NCBI GenBank assembly: GCA_035693225.1
Contig: DASSGV010000086.1
Coordinates: 1,335 to 65,334, forward strand
Direction of reading: 5' to 3'
DNA length: 64,000 nt
Source of the DNA: Gemmatimonadales bacterium
GTDB taxonomy: Bacteria; Gemmatimonadota; Gemmatimonadetes; Gemmatimonadales; GWC2-71-9
Shown here: one piece after another, positions 3,691-62,036 of the stretch
Layout: every line of letters begins with the position of its first letter
Numbering within the stretch: position 1 is the first letter of the stretch
Notes under the pieces: generated by a model
Told to the model about the DNA's origin: nothing
The model's input: only the letters and a program-made list of their open reading frames with translations
Database searches by the model: none
Made by a program: the position numbers and the translations under genes

Positions 3691-3825
3691 CTGTCATCCC
3701 GACCCCGAGCGTAGTCAGAGGGAGGGACCTTGCCGGCGGAGTCTAGAACCTCTATGCCGACCCCGATCGCCGCGGAGAAGGTCCCTCGGGTCTGCGCCTT
3801 CGGCGCAGTTCCCTCGGGACGACAG
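3691..3825. repeat. MITE-like palindromic element, GTCATCCCGA family (variant copy)
   Basis: Termini ctgtcatcccgaccccgagcgtagtcagagggagggacc ... ggtccctcgggtctgcgccttcggcgcagttccctcgggacgacag. It is followed at 3890-3927 by the pyrimidine word array cttcttacttcttacctctcacttcttacc. Confidence 0.8.
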
Positions 3826-3928
3826 ATCGAAATGCGCCGGTCCCTCTTCCCCGCTGCGCCGCTACGCCGCTGACCCGCCCCCTAACACCCCTTCTTACTT
3901 CTTACCTCTCACTTCTTACCTTTCTCCC

Positions 3929-6672: not shown

Positions 6673-6711
6673 GAGAAGATCCCTCGGTCGCGTTGCTCCC
6701 TCGGGATGACA
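6673..6711. repeat. solo right end of the GTCATCCCGA element family
   Basis: gagaagatccctcggtcgcgttgctccctcgggatgaca. No matching left end was found nearby. Confidence 0.6.
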
Positions 6712-6732: not shown

Positions 6733-6927
6733 GGGGTGGCCGCAGGCCACCCCCTACGGACGTTGTCCCAGGCGTTTGTACGACGAGAATGGGCGGGCGC
6801 CTCGAACATTGTCGGTAGGGGGTGGCCTGCGGCCACCCCTGGCGCACGGAATGTCACAACCAACGGAACCTTGTCGCGGGAGCGCAGCGACCGACGGACC
6901 CCGGGGTGGCCGCAGGCCACCCCCTAC
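6733..6927. repeat. three REP/BIME-like palindromic units in alternating orientation
   Basis: ggggtggccgcaggccaccccctac at 6733-6757 and 6903-6927, with the inverted copy gtagggggtggcctgcggccacccc at 6815-6839. The stem is ggggtggcc/ggccacccc. They lie between the convergent kinase and TonB-receptor genes. Confidence 0.85.
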
Positions 6928-14446: not shown

Positions 14447-14660
14447 AGCTAACAGCTATCAGCTATCAGCTATCGGCTACTAGCTATCAGCTATCAGCTA
14501 TCAGTGACTCCGTGCGCAATAAGAAATCGCTAAGACACAAGGGCCCCTCCCTTCAACCGACTGATCGCTGATAGCTCTTTACTGATAGCCGATAGCTGAT
14601 AGCTGGCTGCTGATAGCTGATAGCCGATAGCTGATAGCTCTGTGCTGATAGCTGATAGCT
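14447..14660. repeat. inverted arrays of the 8-nt word GCTGATAG/CTATCAGC around a ~56-nt AT-richer core
   Basis: The left arm 14447-14504 is (agctatc)n. The right arm 14561-14660 is (gctgatag)n, its reverse complement. It lies in the divergent czcD/BNR intergenic region. Confidence 0.85.
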
Positions 14661-17671: not shown

Positions 17672-19006
17672 ATGAACGCCACACCCGGCACCTCGATCAC
17701 CTTCGGGCTCGTTTCGGTCGTCGGGTTGGTCCTCGGCAACGCCTTCTTCGTGGCGGCGGAATTCGCCCTCGTCGGGCTCCGCCGCTCCCGGATCGAGGAG
17801 CTCGCCCAGCGCGGGGTGAGCTCCGCGATCCTCGCCCGCCGGGCGGTCTCCTCCCTCGACCGCTACATCTCCGCCACCCAGCTCGGCATCACTCTCGCCT
17901 CACTCGGCCTCGGCTGGGTCGGCGAGCCGGCGCTCGCGTCGCTCATCGGCGGATGGTTCACCGGCCTCCCCGCCGGATTCCAATCCTGGGCCACCCATAC
18001 GGTCGCGGCTGCGTTCGCCTTCGCCCTCATCACGGTGCTCCACATCGTGCTGGGCGAGCTGGTCCCCAAGGCGCTCGCGATCACCTTCCCTGAACGCGTC
18101 AGCGCCTTCACCATCCGGCCGCTCACCGCCTTTCTCTGGGCCATGACCGGCCCCATCACCATCCTCAATGGGGCCGCCGGCGGGATCCTCCGGCTCCTGG
18201 GCGTGCGCCGTCGCACCAGCCAGGCCTCCCTGCATTCGCCCACCGAGCTCCGCATCCTGGTCGAACAGAGCCAGCAGGCAGGAAGCCTGGGGAGCGAGGA
18301 CGCGCGGCTCCTCGAGGGGGTGTTCGAATTCAGCGAGAAGAACGCCGAGCAGGTGATGACGCCGCGCACCCAGATGACCGCCATCGAGGCCGGCTCGTCG
18401 GTCGAGGAGGCCGCCGGTGTCGTGGCCGCGGCGGGGCGTTCACGCTATCCGGTGTACGAGGGATCGCTCGATGACATCGTGGGCGTGGTGCATGCCAAGG
18501 CCATCCTCGCCGCACTGCGCGCGGGCCCGCACCAGCCGGTACGACAGGTCATGCGGCCGCCGCTCTTCGTGCCGGGAAGTCGGGAGGTGGAGGACGTCCT
18601 GACCGACATGAAGCGGGTCAAGTCCCATATGGCCGTGGTGCTCGACGAATACGGCGGGACCGCGGGGCTCGTCACGATGGAGGACCTGCTGGAGGAGATC
18701 GTCGGCCCCATCGAGGATGAATACGACCGGCCCGACCGGGTACCGGCGCCCGCGGACGGGTCGCTGGTCCTCGACGGTGCCCTGCCCATCGCCGAGGCGA
18801 ACGAACGGCTCGACTTGAGGCTCGACGACGCCGAATACACCACGCTGGGCGGATATCTCTTTGGCCAGCTCGGGCGACTCCCCGCCGTCGGCGATCGGGT
18901 GCGGGCGGGTGGCAGGGAATTCGAGATCGCCGAGATGGAGGGACGCCGGGTCAGGCGGGTGCGGGTGATGACGAAGGCGGCAGGCGAGAAGAAGAGTGAA
19001 GAGTGA
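17672..19006 (+). CDS. HlyC/CorC family transporter (DUF21 + CBS pair + CorC_HlyC)
   Basis: N-terminal TM region (FFVAAEFALVGLRRSRIEEL), a CBS pair, and a C-terminal CorC_HlyC domain. ATG 17672 follows the BNR stop. The ORF's upstream extension to 17462 overlaps the BNR gene. Confidence 0.88.
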   Translation: MNATPGTSITFGLVSVVGLVLGNAFFVAAEFALVGLRRSRIEELAQRGVSSAILARRAVSSLDRYISATQLGITLASLGLGWVGEPALASLIGGWFTGLPAGFQSWATHTVAAAFAFALITVLHIVLGELVPKALAITFPERVSAFTIRPLTAFLWAMTGPITILNGAAGGILRLLGVRRRTSQASLHSPTELRILVEQSQQAGSLGSEDARLLEGVFEFSEKNAEQVMTPRTQMTAIEAGSSVEEAAGVVAAAGRSRYPVYEGSLDDIVGVVHAKAILAALRAGPHQPVRQVMRPPLFVPGSREVEDVLTDMKRVKSHMAVVLDEYGGTAGLVTMEDLLEEIVGPIEDEYDRPDRVPAPADGSLVLDGALPIAEANERLDLRLDDAEYTTLGGYLFGQLGRLPAVGDRVRAGGREFEIAEMEGRRVRRVRVMTKAAGEKKSEE

Positions 19007-19053
19007 AGAGTGAAGAGTGAAGAGGGGGAGTGAAGAGAAAGCGTGAAGAGTGG
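18987..19053. repeat. left arm of inverted repeat (GTGAAGAG words) flanking a four-helix-bundle gene
   Basis: Sequence gagaagaagagtgaagagtgaagagtgaagagtgaagagggggagtgaagagaaagcgtgaagagtgg. It is colinear with the reverse complement of 19548-19625 and contains the corC stop codon. Confidence 0.85.
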
Positions 19054-19131
19054 AGCTGGAAGCGCGATCTTCTGCGCTGGGGCGAGCAGGAATGGTTACC
19101 CGCCGATGGGCGGCGCAGGTAAGATCGTCCG

Positions 19132-19518
19132 ATGCGTGATCATACCAGCCTGAAAGCGTGGCAGTGCGCTCGTGCCGTAGCGTTCGGGGTGCTGCGCCTG
19201 GGACGTTCGCACTGGAAACCGTGGGCGGCAACACACTTCGACCAGGCGCTTCGAGCCTCGTTGTCGGTCCAGCTCAACATCGCCGAGGGTTATGCCTTCG
19301 GGGACGGACCCACATTCGTCCGTCATCTCCGGATCGCCTATGGCTCAGCGGTGGAGACGGGGGACATCCTCGTGTTGCTCAGGGATGCAGAGGTGGCAGA
19401 CATCGAGACCCTGGCGTCGCTGATCGATGCCAATGTCGAGGGCAAGGCGTGTTTGCTGGGATTGCTCCGACGGCGGAATGGCTGGCGCCCGGCCCAAGCC
19501 GGCACCCACCGATCGTGA
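19132..19518 (+). CDS. four-helix-bundle protein (PF05635 / TIGR02436, '23S rRNA intervening sequence protein', Avd-like)
   Basis: 128 aa with a diverged family pattern: L.AWQ.A......L......W......Q.LRAS.SV..NIAEGY......F...L.IAYGS..E. Confidence 0.8.
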   Translation: MRDHTSLKAWQCARAVAFGVLRLGRSHWKPWAATHFDQALRASLSVQLNIAEGYAFGDGPTFVRHLRIAYGSAVETGDILVLLRDAEVADIETLASLIDANVEGKACLLGLLRRRNGWRPAQAGTHRS

Positions 19519-19547
19519 CGGCCAATACCTTGCCTCTCCCGTTATCA

Positions 19548-19625
19548 CCCTCCCCTTTTCACTCTTCACTTCTCCTCTTCACTCCCCCTCTTCACTTTTC
19601 ACTCTTCACTTGTCACTTCTCCCCC
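19548..19625. repeat. right arm of inverted repeat (CTCTTCAC words)
   Basis: Sequence ccctccccttttcactcttcacttctcctcttcactccccctcttcacttttcactcttcacttgtcacttctccccc. It contains the last codons and the stop of pdxA on the minus strand. Confidence 0.85.
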
Positions 19626-33350: not shown

Positions 33351-33440
33351 GCGCAGGGGCGGAGAGACGCAGGGGCGGAGAGGCGGGTGGACGCAGTAAG
33401 GCGCGTGGACAGGCGCGTGAGGCGCGAGGGTGGAGCGGAG

Positions 33441-33509
33441 CGTCATCCCGAGCAGAGCGAGGGATCTTCTCCGCAGAGAGAGGACCGTCCCACCACGCTG
33501 GGATGACAG
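33441..33509. repeat. MITE-like palindromic element, GTCATCCCGAG family (short copy)
   Basis: Termini cgtcatcccgagcagagcgagggatcttctcc ... ccacgctgggatgacag. It is preceded (33352-33440) by purine word arrays gcaggggcggagag / ggcgcgtgg. Confidence 0.75.
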
Positions 33510-33548
33510 ATCGGTGGACGATCCGCCTGGCCACGAAAGGCGACATGC

Positions 33549-40859: not shown

Positions 40860-41716
40860 CCACGGGCGAACTCCTCGGCGCCCACGTATCCACCGCCGGC
40901 GGGCCCCAGACGGCGCCGCCGCGTGGCGTCGACATCGGCGCCACCGCCATCCAGCTCTTCACCAAGACCCCGAACCAGTGGCGGGAACCGGTCCTCTCCG
41001 ACGAGACGATCGCCGCTTGGCGGAAGGCGTGGACGGAGAGCGGGCTCGGTGTGGCGGTGTCCCACGACAGCTACCTGATCAACCTCGCGTCCCCCGACGC
41101 GGCGCTGCGCAAGCGATCGATCGCCTCCTTCACCGCGGAACTCACCCGCTGCACCCAGCTCGGCATCCCGTACGTGGTGTCCCACCCCGGCAACTTCATG
41201 GACGACCGAGACCAGGGGCTCACCCGGAACGCCGCGGCGTACGCCGAGTGCCTCGAGTCGGTGCCAGGACCGGTGATGGTGCTGATGGAGACCACCGCCG
41301 GCACCGGCACCGCCCTCGGCAGCACCTTCGAGGAACTGGCGGAGCTCCGGGCCCGGATGCCCAAGGCGGTCCAGGCGCGGGTCGGGTACTGTGCCGATAC
41401 CTGTCACATCTACGCCGCGGGATACGACCTCGTCGGCGACTACGACGGCGTCTGGGAACGCTTCGACCGGAGCTGCGGGCTCGAACGGCTCCGCTGCCTC
41501 CACCTGAACGACTCCAAGACGCCGTTCAACTCCCATCGTGACCGGCACGGACTGATCGCGGAGGGATCGCTGGGGGCCGAACCCTTCCGCCGCATCATGA
41601 ACGACCCGCGGATGACCGGCGTGGCCAAGATCCTGGAGACCCCGAAGAGCGAGGATATGGTGACCAACGACCGGAAGATGCTGGCAAGACTGCGGGGGTA
41701 CGTCGGGAAGAAGTGA
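40838..41716 (+). CDS. nfo: endonuclease IV (AP endonuclease family 2)
   Basis: LGAHVS..GG, HDSYLINLAS, VSHPG, ETTAG and CADTCH motifs. It overlaps the preceding gene by 22 nt. Confidence 0.92.
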   Translation: MAPAKKVTTGELLGAHVSTAGGPQTAPPRGVDIGATAIQLFTKTPNQWREPVLSDETIAAWRKAWTESGLGVAVSHDSYLINLASPDAALRKRSIASFTAELTRCTQLGIPYVVSHPGNFMDDRDQGLTRNAAAYAECLESVPGPVMVLMETTAGTGTALGSTFEELAELRARMPKAVQARVGYCADTCHIYAAGYDLVGDYDGVWERFDRSCGLERLRCLHLNDSKTPFNSHRDRHGLIAEGSLGAEPFRRIMNDPRMTGVAKILETPKSEDMVTNDRKMLARLRGYVGKK

Positions 41717-41935
41717 GAAGTAAGAAGTAAGAAGTGAGAAGGAAGAAGTGAGAGGGGAGAGGTAAGAAGTGAGAAGTGAGAAGGGATAGTGAAGGGTGAA
41801 AAGTGAAGAGTGAAGGGTAGTGACGAGTGAAGAGCGAAGAGTAAGAAGCGAGGAGCCCAGGTTTTCGCCGCCCGCTTGTCCCTTCTTACTTCTCACTCTT
41901 AACTCGTCACTTCTCCCCCCCTCCCCCTTCCCCGA
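41714..41935. repeat. purine word array (GTGAGAAG/GTAAGAAG/GTGAAGAG) ending in a hairpin with its pyrimidine complement
   Basis: gtgacgagtgaagagcgaagagtaagaag (left) versus cttcttacttctcactcttaactcgtcac (right) shows 4 mismatches in 29 by hand. The loop is about 30 nt. The nfo stop TGA is the first word. Confidence 0.8.
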
Positions 41936-45628: not shown

Positions 45629-47220
<1,592 letters not shown>

Positions 47221-47227
<7 letters not shown>

Positions 47228-47390
47228 ACGGTCGCGTAACTGATCGCGTGAAAGAACGCGTAACTGATCGCGTGGACGGCCGCGTGAGAGTCGTGTAACT
47301 GATCGCGTAAGAGAACGCGTAACAGAACGCGTGAAAAGCCGCGTGACTGATCGGGTGAAGAGCCGCGTGACTGATCGCGTGGACGGCTGC
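47221..47390. repeat. left arm of inverted repeat (CGCGTAAC/TGATCGCG/TGA.. words)
   Basis: Sequence cgcgtgaacggtcgcgtaactgatcgcgtgaaagaacgcgtaactgatcgcgtggacgg... The pckA stop lies in the first word. Confidence 0.85.
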
Positions 47391-47456
47391 GCGGAAATGA
47401 TCGGTATCGGGTGATTTTGGTTGCCGGTGGGTGGGGGTGACCCGATAACTTGGGGG

Positions 47457-47807
47457 ATGGACCCCTACGAGCGCTTCGACGCGTGGACGCGATCGCACGA
47501 ACTGGCCGTTGCGGTGCACCGCGCTACCCGGAACTGGCCGCCGGACGAACGCTTCGGGCTCGTTGCCCAGGTGCGCCGAGCGGCCTTTTCAGTCCCGGCC
47601 AATATCGTCGAGGGACGTGCCAGAAGGGGGCCCAAGGAATTCCGCCGGTTTCTCGACATCGCGTGGGCGTCGCTCGCCGAAGTCGGTTACACTCTGCGAT
47701 ACGCACACGATGTGGGTTACTTGACGCCTGAAGCACACGCCGAGCTCGAGCACGCACGGGCAAAGGCCGGCCGATCGCTCTACGCCCTGCTTCGCAATAT
47801 GAGTTGA
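47457..47807 (+). CDS. four-helix-bundle protein (PF05635 / TIGR02436, Avd / 23S rRNA IVS protein family)
   Basis: MDPYERFDAWTRSHELAVAVHRATRNWPPDERFGLVAQVRRAAFSVPANIVEGRARRGPKEFRRFLDIAWASLAEVGYTLRYAHDVGYL is a close match to the family consensus. Confidence 0.9.
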   Translation: MDPYERFDAWTRSHELAVAVHRATRNWPPDERFGLVAQVRRAAFSVPANIVEGRARRGPKEFRRFLDIAWASLAEVGYTLRYAHDVGYLTPEAHAELEHARAKAGRSLYALLRNMS

Positions 47808-47813
47808 GCTTTG

Positions 47814-47928
47814 CGCGGTCAGTTACGCGATCACTCACGCGATCATTCACGCGGTCAGTTACGCGATTATGTACGCGGTCAGTTACGCGATCACCCACGC
47901 GATCAGTTACGCGCCATTTCACCCGATC
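47814..47928. repeat. right arm of inverted repeat (CGCGATCAGTTACGCG words)
   Basis: Sequence gcgcggtcagttacgcgatcactcacgcgatcattcacgcggtcagttacgcg..., the reverse complement of the left-arm words. It ends within ~10 nt of the HD-gene ATG. Confidence 0.85.
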
Positions 47929-47936
47929 CGTCCCCC

Positions 47937-49223
47937 ATGCCCATTCCCCCCGACTTCGAGATCGTCCGCGACCCGGTCTGGGACAACATCCGTCTCGACC
48001 GCCCCGTCGCGACACTGGTCGACACACCCACCGTCCAGCGGCTCCGCTACGTGCGCCAGCTGGGCCACGCCTTCCTGGTCTACCCCGGCGCCACCCACTC
48101 CCGCTTCGAACACGCACTCGGCACCTACCACCTGGCCCGGAGCGCCCTGGTGGCGCTGGAAGAGCGGGGCGAACTGGACGGCGTGCCGGAGGAGGAACGG
48201 CTGGCGGTGCGGCTGGCGGCATTGCTGCACGACATTGGCCACTACCCCTTTTCCCACGCGCTCGAAGAGGCAGGCTTTCCCGACCACGAATCGCTGGGCC
48301 AGGCCAAGCTCTCCCGCGGCCCCCTGGGCGACTCGCTCCGCTCCCTCGGCGGCGACGCGCTCATCGCGCGCATCGGCGAGCTCATCCGCGGCAAGAGCGC
48401 GTCGCCGCTGGCGGGACTCATCTCCGGATCTCTTGACCTCGACAAGATCGACTACCTGAGTCGAGACGCGCGGATGTGCGGGGTGCCGTACGGGACCGTG
48501 GACGTCAACCGGCTCCTGGCGGCGCTGGCACTGGTGGAGGTAGGTGGTGGAAGACGGGAGGCGGGGGTTCACGAGAAGGGGGTGAGTGCCCTCGAATCGC
48601 TCCTCTTTGCCAAGTACCAGATGTACCGGAACGTCTACTGGCACCACGCCGTGCGCTCCGCCACCTCGATGTTCAAGCGGGCGGTGCGGAACGCCGTGGC
48701 ACGCAAGGTACTGACCCCCGCGGCAATTGCCGACGCCACCGATGCGAGCCTGGAAGAGGCCCTCCTTCGCGACGACCCGACCGGACTGGCACGGGCGGTA
48801 CACGAACGCCGACTCTACAAGCGGGCCCTCGACATCGCCGCCGCCGACCTTCCCGCCGATATCCAGCCCTGGCTCTCGGAGGACGCCGATCTTCTGGAGC
48901 GGGTCGAGGATGCGCTTGCCAGGGAGCTGGGTCTCAAACCGGGAGAGCTGCTGCTCGACTTCCCGAGCCGCCCCTCGATGCTCTCGGTCGATCTCCCCCT
49001 CCGCACCCGCACCGGCGGCACCGAGCGCCTCACCGACGAGGGGCGTGCCGGCCAGCTCGGCCTCCCCCGCGTGGCGGAAGAGCTCTACCAGAGCGCCCGG
49101 CGGCTCCGGGTGTTCACGGCAGAGCGCGTAAAGAGCGGTTTGGAGCGTGTGCTGGCGGTGGTGACGTTGCCGAGCGCGGAGATCGAGAAGCGGGTGAAGG
49201 AGGGGAAGGCGTTGCTGGCGTGA
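47937..49223 (+). CDS. HD-domain phosphohydrolase (COG1078-type, dNTP triphosphohydrolase-like)
   Basis: HSRFEHALGTYHLA and LAALLHDIGHYPFSHALE. The ORF extension from 47811 translates the repeat arm (GQLRDHSRDHSRGQLRD) and was rejected. Confidence 0.85.
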   Translation: MPIPPDFEIVRDPVWDNIRLDRPVATLVDTPTVQRLRYVRQLGHAFLVYPGATHSRFEHALGTYHLARSALVALEERGELDGVPEEERLAVRLAALLHDIGHYPFSHALEEAGFPDHESLGQAKLSRGPLGDSLRSLGGDALIARIGELIRGKSASPLAGLISGSLDLDKIDYLSRDARMCGVPYGTVDVNRLLAALALVEVGGGRREAGVHEKGVSALESLLFAKYQMYRNVYWHHAVRSATSMFKRAVRNAVARKVLTPAAIADATDASLEEALLRDDPTGLARAVHERRLYKRALDIAAADLPADIQPWLSEDADLLERVEDALARELGLKPGELLLDFPSRPSMLSVDLPLRTRTGGTERLTDEGRAGQLGLPRVAEELYQSARRLRVFTAERVKSGLERVLAVVTLPSAEIEKRVKEGKALLA

Positions 49224-61456: not shown

Positions 61457-62036
61457 CGAGTGGTGAGTGGTGAGTGGCGAGAGGCGAGTGGCGAGTGGTG
61501 AGTGGCGGGTGGCGGGTGGCGGGTGACGAGGGGTAAGGCGTGCGCCAATGAACTGTCATCCCGACCCCGAGCGGCGCGAGGGGGAGGGGCCTTCTCCGCT
61601 GGCCCTCGAACTGGACGACAGTGATTAGTGCGAGTGGCGAGTGGCGAGAGGCGAGGGGTAGGGGGTGCACCAATGAACTGTCATCCCGACCCCGAGCAGC
61701 GCGAGGGGGAGGGACCTTCTCCACTGGCCCCCGAACTGGGCGACAGTGATTAGTGCGAGTGGCGAGAGGCGAGAGGCGAGTGGCGAGGGGCGAGGGGTAG
61801 GGAGTGCGCCAATGAACTGTCATCCCGACCCCGAGTAGCGCGAGGGGGAGGGACCTTCTCCGCTGGCCCCGGATCGGGCGGCACCGGTCCGATGTTGACG
61901 GACAAGGTCCCTCGGTCGGCGCTGCCTCCCTCGGGATGACAGCACATTGTAAGCACGGCCCCCGCGACTCACGCCCACGACCCACTCACCACTAACCACT
62001 CTCCACTCGCCACTCGCCACCAACCACCCGCCACCC
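61457..62036. repeat. composite repeat: GCGAGTGG/GCGGGTGG word arrays + 3 tandem MITE-like half units + closing MITE end + complementary CCACTCGC word array
   Basis: ccaatgaactgtcatcccgaccccgag recurs at 61545, 61670 and 61809 (periods 125 and 139). The closing end ggtccctcggtcggcgctgcctccctcgggatgacag finishes at 61942. The right array 61966-62036 is made of the reverse complements of the left-array words. Confidence 0.85.

Follow-up and report, generated by a model that had tools for sequence, protein, structure and literature searches.

The 23S rRNA of Coxiella carries an intervening sequence (IVS) in which an S23p open reading frame (ORF) occupies the loop of a terminal stem that is cleaved by RNase III in vitro, and two to three tandem GACAGAT heptamers, varying in copy number by strain, lie upstream of this ORF (PMC4990558). 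Here we describe a cassette of related design in a 64,000-nucleotide stretch of Gemmatimonadales DNA (contig DASSGV010000086.1; this whole 64-kb stretch is called the window below). The cassette lies between pckA and a gene for an HD-domain phosphohydrolase, and consists of a gene of the same protein family flanked by two arrays of short tandem words, one of which is the reverse complement of the other.

Three further types of element are relevant to this arrangement. Eukaryotic Foldback (FB) transposons have long inverted arms of tandem short repeats that vary in length and sometimes enclose a coding loop; these elements depend on a transposase, and their arm repeat families are common to different copies. 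The Correia repeat-enclosed elements of Neisseria have a 26-bp terminal repeat and make TA target duplications. Correia elements are co-transcribed, and their RNA hairpins bind RNase III, are cut or protected, and alter the expression of neighbouring genes (PMC2649163). Finally, published descriptions of tandem heptamer repeats located between genes treat them as direct repeats that may play a part in translation or regulation (PMC4679880).

We give slightly better than even weight to the reading that the cassette is of the IVS type but resides in an operon instead of in rRNA, and that pairing of its arms in read-through RNA would insulate the insert by means of a stem of the RNase III type. 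The evidence that bears on this reading, and on four others, is presented below.

A four-helix-bundle gene between complementary word arrays

The cassette and its two host genes are composed of the following features.

45629..47227, + strand: pckA, ATP-dependent phosphoenolpyruvate carboxykinase, the upstream host gene (PF01293, 2.7e-216; NF006822, 831 bits)
47221..47391, + strand: left (5') arm, 14 tandem 12-nt words, 60% purine (Tandem Repeats Finder, word split and inverted-repeat pairs)
47392..47456, + strand: spacer with promoter-like motifs, AATGA at 47396 (-61), TTGGT at 47417 (-40) and TAACTT at 47446-47451 (-11)
47457..47807, + strand: gene for a 116-amino-acid four-helix-bundle protein, PF05635/TIGR02436 ('23S rRNA intervening-sequence protein'), from hidden Markov model matches
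47814..47928, + strand: right (3') arm, 9 tandem 12-nt words, 56% pyrimidine (Tandem Repeats Finder, inverted pairs and word list)
47937..49223, + strand: HD-domain phosphohydrolase (HD plus HD_assoc_2), the downstream host gene (PF01966, 5.1e-11; PF19276, 1.2e-27)

Left-arm words have a CGCGT(G/A)A core followed by variable letters (for example CGCGTAACTGAT and CGCGTGAAAGAA), and right-arm words are the reverse complements of these (for example GTCAGTTACGCG and ATCACTCACGCG). The word counts were obtained by splitting the arrays on the CGCGT core. Tandem Repeats Finder yields a period of 12 nt with 13.5 copies for positions 47221-47381 of the left arm, whereas the right arm is reported both with a period of 12 nt (8.3 copies, 47814-47913) and with a period of 24 nt (4.8 copies) that reaches 47928. 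An earlier note on this DNA, made from its letters without database searches, had proposed 8-nt words; these are corrected here to a 12-nt word with a 24-nt super-period. The same note placed the pckA stop codon within the first left-arm word and the HD-gene ATG within about 10 nt of the right arm, and both placements are accurate: the TGA is located at 47225-47227, and the ATG at 47937 begins 8 nt past the arm.

The claim that the right arm is the reverse complement of the left was evaluated by local alignment of the left flank with the reverse-complemented right flank, which gives a score of 83. The best of 200 shuffles reaches 22, alignment with right flanks taken from 15 other loci gives at most 21, and the direct-orientation control yields 17. 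The claim therefore stands, with complementarity well above what low-complexity sequence yields in either the shuffled or the cross-locus controls. The longest ungapped inverted pair (47292-47380 versus 47825-47913) spans 89 nt and is 78% complementary. When the region 47205-47945 is folded as RNA, which the earlier note had proposed as a check, the arms pair in both the minimum free energy (MFE) and the centroid structures (MFE of -375 kcal/mol; z = -12.3), and the predicted form of this pairing is a long interrupted stem.

Both arms are repetitive and have a common palindromic CGCG core, and metagenome-assembled genomes (MAGs) can contain collapsed or chimeric repeats. These properties could raise the concern that the arms reflect chance complementarity of low-complexity stretches or an assembly artefact. 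An independent assembly provides Logan contig L001, which matches 46576-47843 at 99.76% without gaps and so spans the cassette from its left arm through the ORF into the right arm, within which the contig ends. This gapless match indicates that the left arm is no assembly artefact. In addition, orthologues have the layout as well, and so do finished plasmid sequences from cultured strains. Given these results and the control scores above, the probability of this explanation is close to nil, and we treat chance and assembly artefact as excluded. An exact-sequence look-up of the window protein returned a 1.3-kb Logan contig as its sole match.

Insertion into a tightly coupled gene pair

A cassette is present at the same pckA-HD junction in L002, whose four-helix-bundle protein is 89% identical to that of the window, and in L003-L006, whose proteins are 76% identical. 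In five more distant Gemmatimonadales genomes (L008, L010, L011, L015 and L023), pckA and the HD gene are adjacent and no cassette is present. The spacers at these empty sites are only about 0-25 nt long, with stop and start codons that abut or overlap (GTGA, TTGA, TGATTG). Because the two genes abut or overlap in these five genomes, the ~710-bp unit can be recognized as an insertion. Gene order in these genomes indicates that the ancestral state was a tightly coupled pckA-HD pair, that the ~710-bp unit, arms included, was inserted precisely at the pckA-stop/HD-start junction in an ancestor of this Gemmatimonadales lineage, and that the cassette has been vertically inherited since then.

A unit that has been inserted and that has clean empty sites is also expected if the arrays act as the functional ends of a mobile or recombinogenic element. 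Under this explanation, insertion, excision or rearrangement would be driven by DNA in cruciform or hairpin form, and any pairing of the RNA would arise incidentally. We consider such a DNA-level foldback element, a counterpart of the eukaryotic Foldback transposons, rather unlikely. The position of the cassette at the pckA-HD junction has persisted over a period in which pckA accumulated a synonymous divergence (dS) of ~0.45. No target-site duplication is recognizable at this level of divergence, though empty sites exist in other species. Moreover, no transposase, integrase or reverse transcriptase was found among 10 ORFs of at least 180 amino acids that were scanned with Pfam between 36 and 58 kb.

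Longer pckA-HD spacers of 80-170 nt occur in L013, L014 and L017, none of which has a four-helix-bundle gene. Small word hairpins are found in the spacers of L014 and L017, and a common GC-rich hairpin is found in those of L013 and L014. The word hairpins at an otherwise unoccupied junction fit another explanation, in which word-array hairpins are a host feature serving as local insulators or terminators, and PF05635 genes, like other small elements, land or survive in their loops, so that arms and payload would be independent of each other. This explanation seems to us unlikely. The five empty-site genomes have no array of any kind at this junction, and additional points on both sides are given with the family-wide and window-wide results below.

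The encoded protein is conserved by purifying selection

As the earlier note had suggested, the ORF at 47457..47807 is a close match to TIGR02436 (101.6 bits, cut-off 24; 2.7e-29), and its match to PF05635 is equally clear (103 bits, cut-off 33.8; 1.2e-29). The solved structure of XCC0516 (PDB 2GSC) is matched by the window protein at 1.4e-21. The motif G-x3-Q-x-R-x4-S-x3-N-x2-E-G, characteristic of this family of ~110-130-amino-acid proteins and also recorded in PMC3936711, is present as GLVAQVRRAAFSVPANIVEG. Residues G34, Q38, R40, S45, N49, E52 and G53 are invariant across 22 relatives. Models of Avd, a protein of diversity-generating retroelements, match only weakly (bAvd, 2.6e-4; DivGenRetAVD, 1.2e-4), with 22 bits compared to cut-offs of 40 and 80.

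Among three pckA-HD orthologues, the ratio of nonsynonymous to synonymous divergence (dN/dS) of the four-helix-bundle gene is 0.05-0.10, and the median is 0.08 in another orthologous group of such genes. The protein is kept by purifying selection. Two properties of the gene differ from those of its hosts: its dS among orthologues (1.1-1.8) is above the values for pckA (0.45) and the HD gene (0.73), and its G+C content at third codon positions (0.73) is lower than theirs (0.93 and 0.86, respectively). Weak codon bias could produce this pattern, as could allele replacement inside a stable envelope.

The closest database relatives of the protein are from Gemmatimonadales MAGs. The family as a whole is large, since 15,731 clusters at 50% identity were reached from the window-protein query alone. 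Within the window, a tblastn search with the protein at E values up to 10 detected neither another copy nor any trace of the gene in the ORF-less hairpins described below.

Inverted word arrays recur across the family

A search based on an alignment of relatives yielded 80 metagenomic loci whose proteins are 45-65% identical, and 68 of these were usable. Arms were scored as present if the inverted flank score exceeded that of all 100 shuffles, and by this measure 62 of the 68 loci have inverted flanking arms. The search for the right arm was begun inside the 3' end of the ORF; otherwise, arms are detected in only ~50 of the 68 loci, as the reading frame continues into the right arm at several loci and encodes P/S/T-rich tails. 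Arm length in the metagenomic loci is 20-85 nt with a median of 36 nt, and complementarity is 89%; the arms consist of tandem words of mostly 8 or 10 nt, such as GACGGAAG, GGAGGTTGGT, GGCGGTAA and GAATGATG. Word periods across loci range from 7 to 12 nt, and no other arms in the sample are as long as those in the window. A median of 75 nt separates the left arm from the ATG, and the distance from the stop codon to the right arm is usually 0-20 nt. This near-constant geometry in the 62 loci is hard to obtain if PF05635 genes landed at random in pre-existing host hairpins.

The same layout is seen in 11 of 12 plasmid-borne homologues from a plasmid collection, with carriers that include Gemmatirosa kalamazoonensis and several Nostocales (Nostoc, Calothrix). 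Thus, flanking inverted arrays, for which the earlier note had proposed to test other PF05635 genes, are present at both such genes of the window and at most of the metagenomic and plasmid loci, which span several phyla. The sole plasmid homologue without matching arms is L090 (Nostoc sp. PCC 7120 plasmid gamma, 600-1080), which has only a right (CTTCTGC C)n array. A gene for an ISL3-family transposase ends ~80 nt upstream of this ORF, and the left arm was probably lost to insertion of this insertion sequence. In L088 (Gemmatirosa kalamazoonensis plasmid 1, 520-1060), the left (GGCAGGA)n array is directly followed by its own complementary array to give a local hairpin, after which come a spacer, the ORF and a second pyrimidine array. 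The L088 ORF is consequently flanked by direct pyrimidine arrays plus an inverted purine array. A left array that has its own partner before the ORF is a point in favour of hairpins as a host feature.

Several genomic locations are represented among these loci. L092, from Azospirillum lipoferum AZO_p2, is a genuine 23S rRNA IVS with GACGGAT/GACAGAG heptamer arms (fold z = -10.4). Cassettes with heptamer-word arms also occupy cas gene junctions, either between cas10 and cmr3 or between cas6 and cas4, in L093 (Picosynechococcus PCC 7003), L175 (Pseudanabaena galeata) and L177 (Anabaena sp. 90). PF05635 genes between cas genes have been read as having cas-associated functions (PMC3936711), but the repeat envelope suggests that those at these junctions are inserts.

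Related cassettes lie directly 3' of tRNA-Thr(CGT) in L128, L148, L158, L161 (698-1395), L164 and L173. In several of these the ORF stop codon has been lost, so that the frame reads through into the pyrimidine-rich right arm and encodes a P/S/T-rich C-terminal tail.

Three family-wide observations favour the explanation that the arrays are the ends of a foldback element. One group of cassettes is situated at the 3' end of tRNA-Thr; 85 locus pairs with protein identities of at least 70% have no detectable flank homology on either side; and the decay forms L115 and L117 have lost the right arm along with the 3' end of the ORF in a joint deletion. On the other side, the arms are private to each locus and hence offer no common end for an enzyme, and cassettes with similar arms are almost always orthologous rather than new insertions. 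We initially entertained the possibility that shared arm words reveal cassettes that had moved together with their arms, but this was rejected when the outer flanks of such loci proved to be homologous and the loci mostly orthologous.

Arms diverge between loci while remaining complementary within each locus

The window contains a second cassette, which provides a direct comparison.

18991..19618, + strand: cassette 1, with arms at 18991-19052 and 19555-19618 and an ORF at 19132-19518 (PF05635, 1.7e-14, 54.3 bits)

The arms of cassette 1 are built from a 7-nt unit, with (GAAGAGT)n on the left and its reverse complement on the right, and these arms are paired in the predicted fold (z = -7.6). 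Cross-complementarity between cassette 1 and the pckA-HD cassette is 14-16, which is at background level, compared to 81 within each. These values uphold the earlier observation that the two cassettes, 28 kb apart, have the same payload family and geometry but no common arm sequence. There are five inverted array pairs in the window, each with private words, and their cross-scores are 8-33 versus 40-83 within a locus. The exception is the pair of loci B and C, which have related words and a cross-score of 55, compared to 40 for C with itself. With no shared terminal repeat among the window arrays, the suspicion of the earlier note that copy-paste of a single MITE (miniature inverted-repeat transposable element) is not responsible can be affirmed.

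Comparisons among orthologues reveal how the words change. In the pckA-HD orthologues L002 and L003, the CGCGTGA core is kept and the remaining letters have changed. The word CGCGTAACTGAT/C has expanded in the window copy, with ~4 copies in each arm (on the left, three exact copies and one CGTGTAACTGAT variant), and is barely present in L002 and L003. Word variants and copy numbers vary from genome to genome within orthologous groups. For 34 loci with orthologues, 8-mer sharing measured in fixed, unbiased windows is 0.033 between the two arms of one locus and 0.021 between orthologous arms (Wilcoxon p = 0.002, which is indicative because the loci are non-independent). In one group of eight loci, the Jaccard index is 0.219 within a locus and 0.115 between orthologous arms (permutation p = 0.009, again with non-independent loci). 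This pattern of word sharing indicates concerted evolution of the arm pair at each locus. The earlier proposal that arms diversify while staying self-complementary is in agreement with these data, given that the core is kept, the words change and sharing is higher within a locus.

If the stem were under selection in sense RNA, an excess of G-U pairs would be expected among arm mismatches. Mismatches were found to comprise 50 that are G-U compatible and 47 that are A-C, and so there is no G-U bias. We therefore do not claim RNA-level compensatory selection on the stem. The lack of G-U bias together with concerted evolution suggests that complementarity is maintained at the DNA level, where slippage within the arrays and templated correction between the inverted arms could account for its upkeep. 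Both observations also favour the foldback explanation, since concerted arm evolution is expected from templated DNA correction.

Purines predominate in the left arm at 61 of 62 loci (median 0.76), and for the right arm the median C/G ratio is 3.5. An inverted repeat has equal polarity on both strands, and therefore a purine-rich 5' arm is a property of the hairpin. For the same reason, a candidate link between this polarity and the orientation of the ORF was dropped.

The divergence of arm words also bears on the possibility that the arms are arrays of putative binding sites for a pentamer of the encoded four-helix-bundle protein, used for autoregulation or for some action on the words, and that protein and words co-evolve. 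The gene and the arrays almost always occur together, the homologue Avd is a pentamer that binds nucleic acid and reverse transcriptase (in part from PMC10053308), and work on heptamer repeats in Nostoc postulates a binding partner (bioRxiv 10.1101/2022.06.06.494920). However, proteins that are 68% identical are accompanied by unrelated words, as illustrated by CGCGTGAnnnnn with a period of 12 in the window and GCGCTGGG with a period of 8 in L007. Likewise, periods differ over the 7-12 nt range, and orthologues with protein identities of 80-96% have drifted in their words. We judge this possibility to be very unlikely.

Other repeat elements in the window

Two of the five array pairs in the window enclose no ORF and have loops of 40-57 nt. 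The first (14447-14660) is composed of (AGCTATC)n and its reverse complement around a 57-nt loop, and lies between divergent genes. The second (41709-41925) is composed of (AGAAGTG)n and a short reverse complement, and begins at the stop codon of an AP-endonuclease gene. These ORF-less hairpins can be counted in favour of host hairpins as a pre-existing and independent feature, but they could equally be what is left of decayed cassettes.

A third pair, with (CGAGTGG)n and (CCACTCA)n at 61457-62036, encloses a different repeat element, which again is a point for host hairpins. It surrounds 2.8 tandem copies of a 125-nt unit made of a word array plus one arm of a TGTCATCCCGA element, and the result is a composite repeat in a divergent intergenic region.

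The TGTCATCCCGA element itself is a hairpin-forming, MITE-like element with the ends TGTCATCCCGA(G/C)C ... GGGATGACA, and it occurs 11 times in the window compared to 0.48 expected. It is found at 1066-1169, 3692-3830, 6699, 33441-33510 and 61554-61941. Tandem-word arrays adjoin it in four of these five places, with none seen beside the copy at 6699: (AGGCGCGTG)n at 1001-1036 and 33399-33425, (AGCTGAT)n at 1173-1248, (CTTCTTA)n at 3891-3921 and (CGAGTGG)n at 61457-61530. Single, unpaired arrays next to a hairpin element are likewise compatible with word arrays being a host feature. At 6733-6925 there are also three copies of a palindrome, GGGGTGGCCGCAGGCCACCCC, that resembles repetitive extragenic palindromes and is repeated at intervals of ~80-100 nt.

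Promoter-like motifs and a possible mode of expression

A total of 70 upstream regions were anchored at the start codon to locate motifs by position. The sequence TAnnnT is found at -13/-12 in 35 of the 70 loci (background 0.6 per position), WTGGW at -41/-40 in 25 of the 70 (background 0.9), and AATGR near -62. Motifs of the TAnnnT/WTGGW type are present in both window cassettes, whose proteins do not find each other by tblastn; in cassette 1 these are ATGGT at -40 and TAAGAT at -12. The spacer motifs resemble the -33/-7 promoter of the Bacteroidetes type. From positional motif enrichment, as the sole basis, we infer that the cassette has its own promoter in the spacer. Because the -10-like box ends ~6 nt before the ATG, such a promoter would give a leaderless mRNA.

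In the IVS-type reading that we favour, the gene would be transcribed from this spacer promoter as a leaderless mRNA, and transcripts that read through from pckA would contain both arms, which could pair into an imperfect duplex of ~100 bp. This duplex may then serve as a substrate for RNase III in the manner of rRNA IVSs, such that the insert is cut from, or insulated from, the host transcript. Recognition by RNase III is proposed by analogy with rRNA IVSs and Correia elements (PMC4990558, PMC2649163). Since the 5' arm is purine-rich on both strands, a transcript born in the loop would leave through a C-rich, G-poor array, which is unpaired in this RNA and resembles a Rho loading site. Rho-dependent termination could thereby keep cassette transcription out of neighbouring genes.

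Several points weigh against this reading or limit its reach. A scan with the sigma-70 consensus revealed no promoter in either window cassette, and a consensus scan revealed no intrinsic terminator in either. An mRNA started at the internal promoter, if this promoter is genuine, would not include the left arm, and stem formation would then be confined to read-through RNA. RNase III cleavage of the operon transcript is an extrapolation from rRNA IVSs, and the involvement of Rho, although plausible, is drawn solely from array composition. The balance of G-U and A-C mismatches described above is not what RNA-level selection would leave. Moreover, the arms of L002 and L003 are much weaker than those of the window (inverted scores of 33 and 37 versus 83), and the whole-cassette fold of L003 has a z of only -1.6, which implies that a strong fold is confined to copies with long arms, like the one in the window. 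In six relatives (L107, L109, L130, L138, L157 and L168), a GC-rich hairpin followed by 7-8 T residues is located between the left arm and the promoter-like motifs, and this terminator-like hairpin would place the two arms on different transcripts.

Implications for PF05635 genes and word repeats

PF05635 is a large family whose members have so far been read as an rRNA curiosity or as cas-associated genes. The finding of a stereotyped, self-complementary envelope in rRNA, by tRNA, in cas operons and between metabolic genes recasts these genes as one kind of self-contained insert, and 'guilt by association' annotations consequently need care. Questions about IVSs, including the purpose of the ORF and the origin of the IVS, become testable outside of rRNA. 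The arms also provide a clean natural case of inverted arrays that diverge between loci but stay complementary within a locus, and a concrete lead on the origin of intergenic tandem repeats of the heptamer type.

A broader and more speculative proposal is that PF05635 cassettes constitute a phylum-spanning class of bacterial foldback-type elements, in which the 23S IVS is the rRNA-resident case, an Avd-like pentamer acts on its own hairpin, and ORF-less hairpins along with part of the intergenic heptamer repeats are footprints. We hold this proposal to be improbable at present. If it is true, the pentamer would bind the hairpin, or would recruit a polymerase or reverse transcriptase, to build, homogenize or move the arms, and the footprints would span intergenic repeats of Cyanobacteria, Beggiatoaceae, Bacteroidetes and Gemmatimonadota.

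Comparison with known systems

Distant homology to Avd, below the family cut-offs, invites comparison of the cassette with diversity-generating retroelements. The large ORFs scanned between 36 and 58 kb include no reverse transcriptase, and no long, near-identical pair of direct repeats of the template/variable repeat (TR/VR) kind is present in 46.9-48.3 kb. The cassette is not a diversity-generating retroelement. Nor is it a classical MITE, since no terminal repeat is common to different copies. A 2024 review of MITEs contains no mention of heptamer, foldback, tandem repeat or intervening sequence. Unlike eukaryotic Foldback transposons, the cassette has locus-private arms and exhibits no sign of transposition.

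Correia elements resemble the cassette in being small intergenic insertions with inverted repeats. However, they are non-coding and have one conserved terminal repeat in more than 120 copies (PMC10969869), whereas the cassette has locus-private tandem words around a conserved gene.

The intergenic tandem heptamer repeats of Cyanobacteria, Beggiatoaceae and Bacteroidetes (short tandemly repeated repetitive sequences, STRR, and TAACTGA repeats) are similar to the cassette in that their words start directly after stop codons or shortly before start codons (PMC4679880). As for unit length, a 7-nt word is found in cassette 1, a 12-nt word in the pckA-HD cassette and words of 8-10 nt in relatives. 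The TAACTGA heptamer is embedded in the CGCGTAACTGAT unit of the window, and the cyanobacterial PF05635 cassettes that were examined are flanked by STRR-type heptamers. The searchable papers on heptamer repeats describe neither a link to PF05635 nor paired inverted arrays around a payload. More generally, the searchable literature, with subscription-only papers outside its reach, contains no link between PF05635/S23p and paired tandem-word arrays outside of rRNA.

The closest resemblance is to the 23S rRNA IVSs of Leptospira, Coxiella, Xanthomonas and Azospirillum. As in the cassette, a member of the same protein family is encoded in the loop of paired terminal inverted repeats, the arms consist of short purine-rich tandem words (GACAGAT in Coxiella, GACGGAT/GACAGAG in Azospirillum), and the insert is placed where the host RNA tolerates interruption. 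The two nevertheless differ in several respects. IVSs reside in helix 25 or 45 of 23S rRNA and have arms of roughly 28-40 nt, whereas the window cassette lies between two protein-coding genes and has arms of 115-170 nt built from a 12-nt unit. A search of positions 47000-48100 against Rfam with E values up to 1 gave no match, and the whole window yields a single tRNA and no rRNA. Further differences are the promoter-like motifs in the cassette spacer, the probable leaderless start and the purifying selection on the protein; the Coxiella ORF, by comparison, is reported to be decaying and untranslated (PMC4990558). Because it is located outside 23S rRNA, the defining site of an IVS, the cassette is IVS-like and is not an IVS. 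Nonetheless, as judged from these sequence comparisons, the envelope of self-complementary words links rRNA IVSs, operon inserts and intergenic word repeats.

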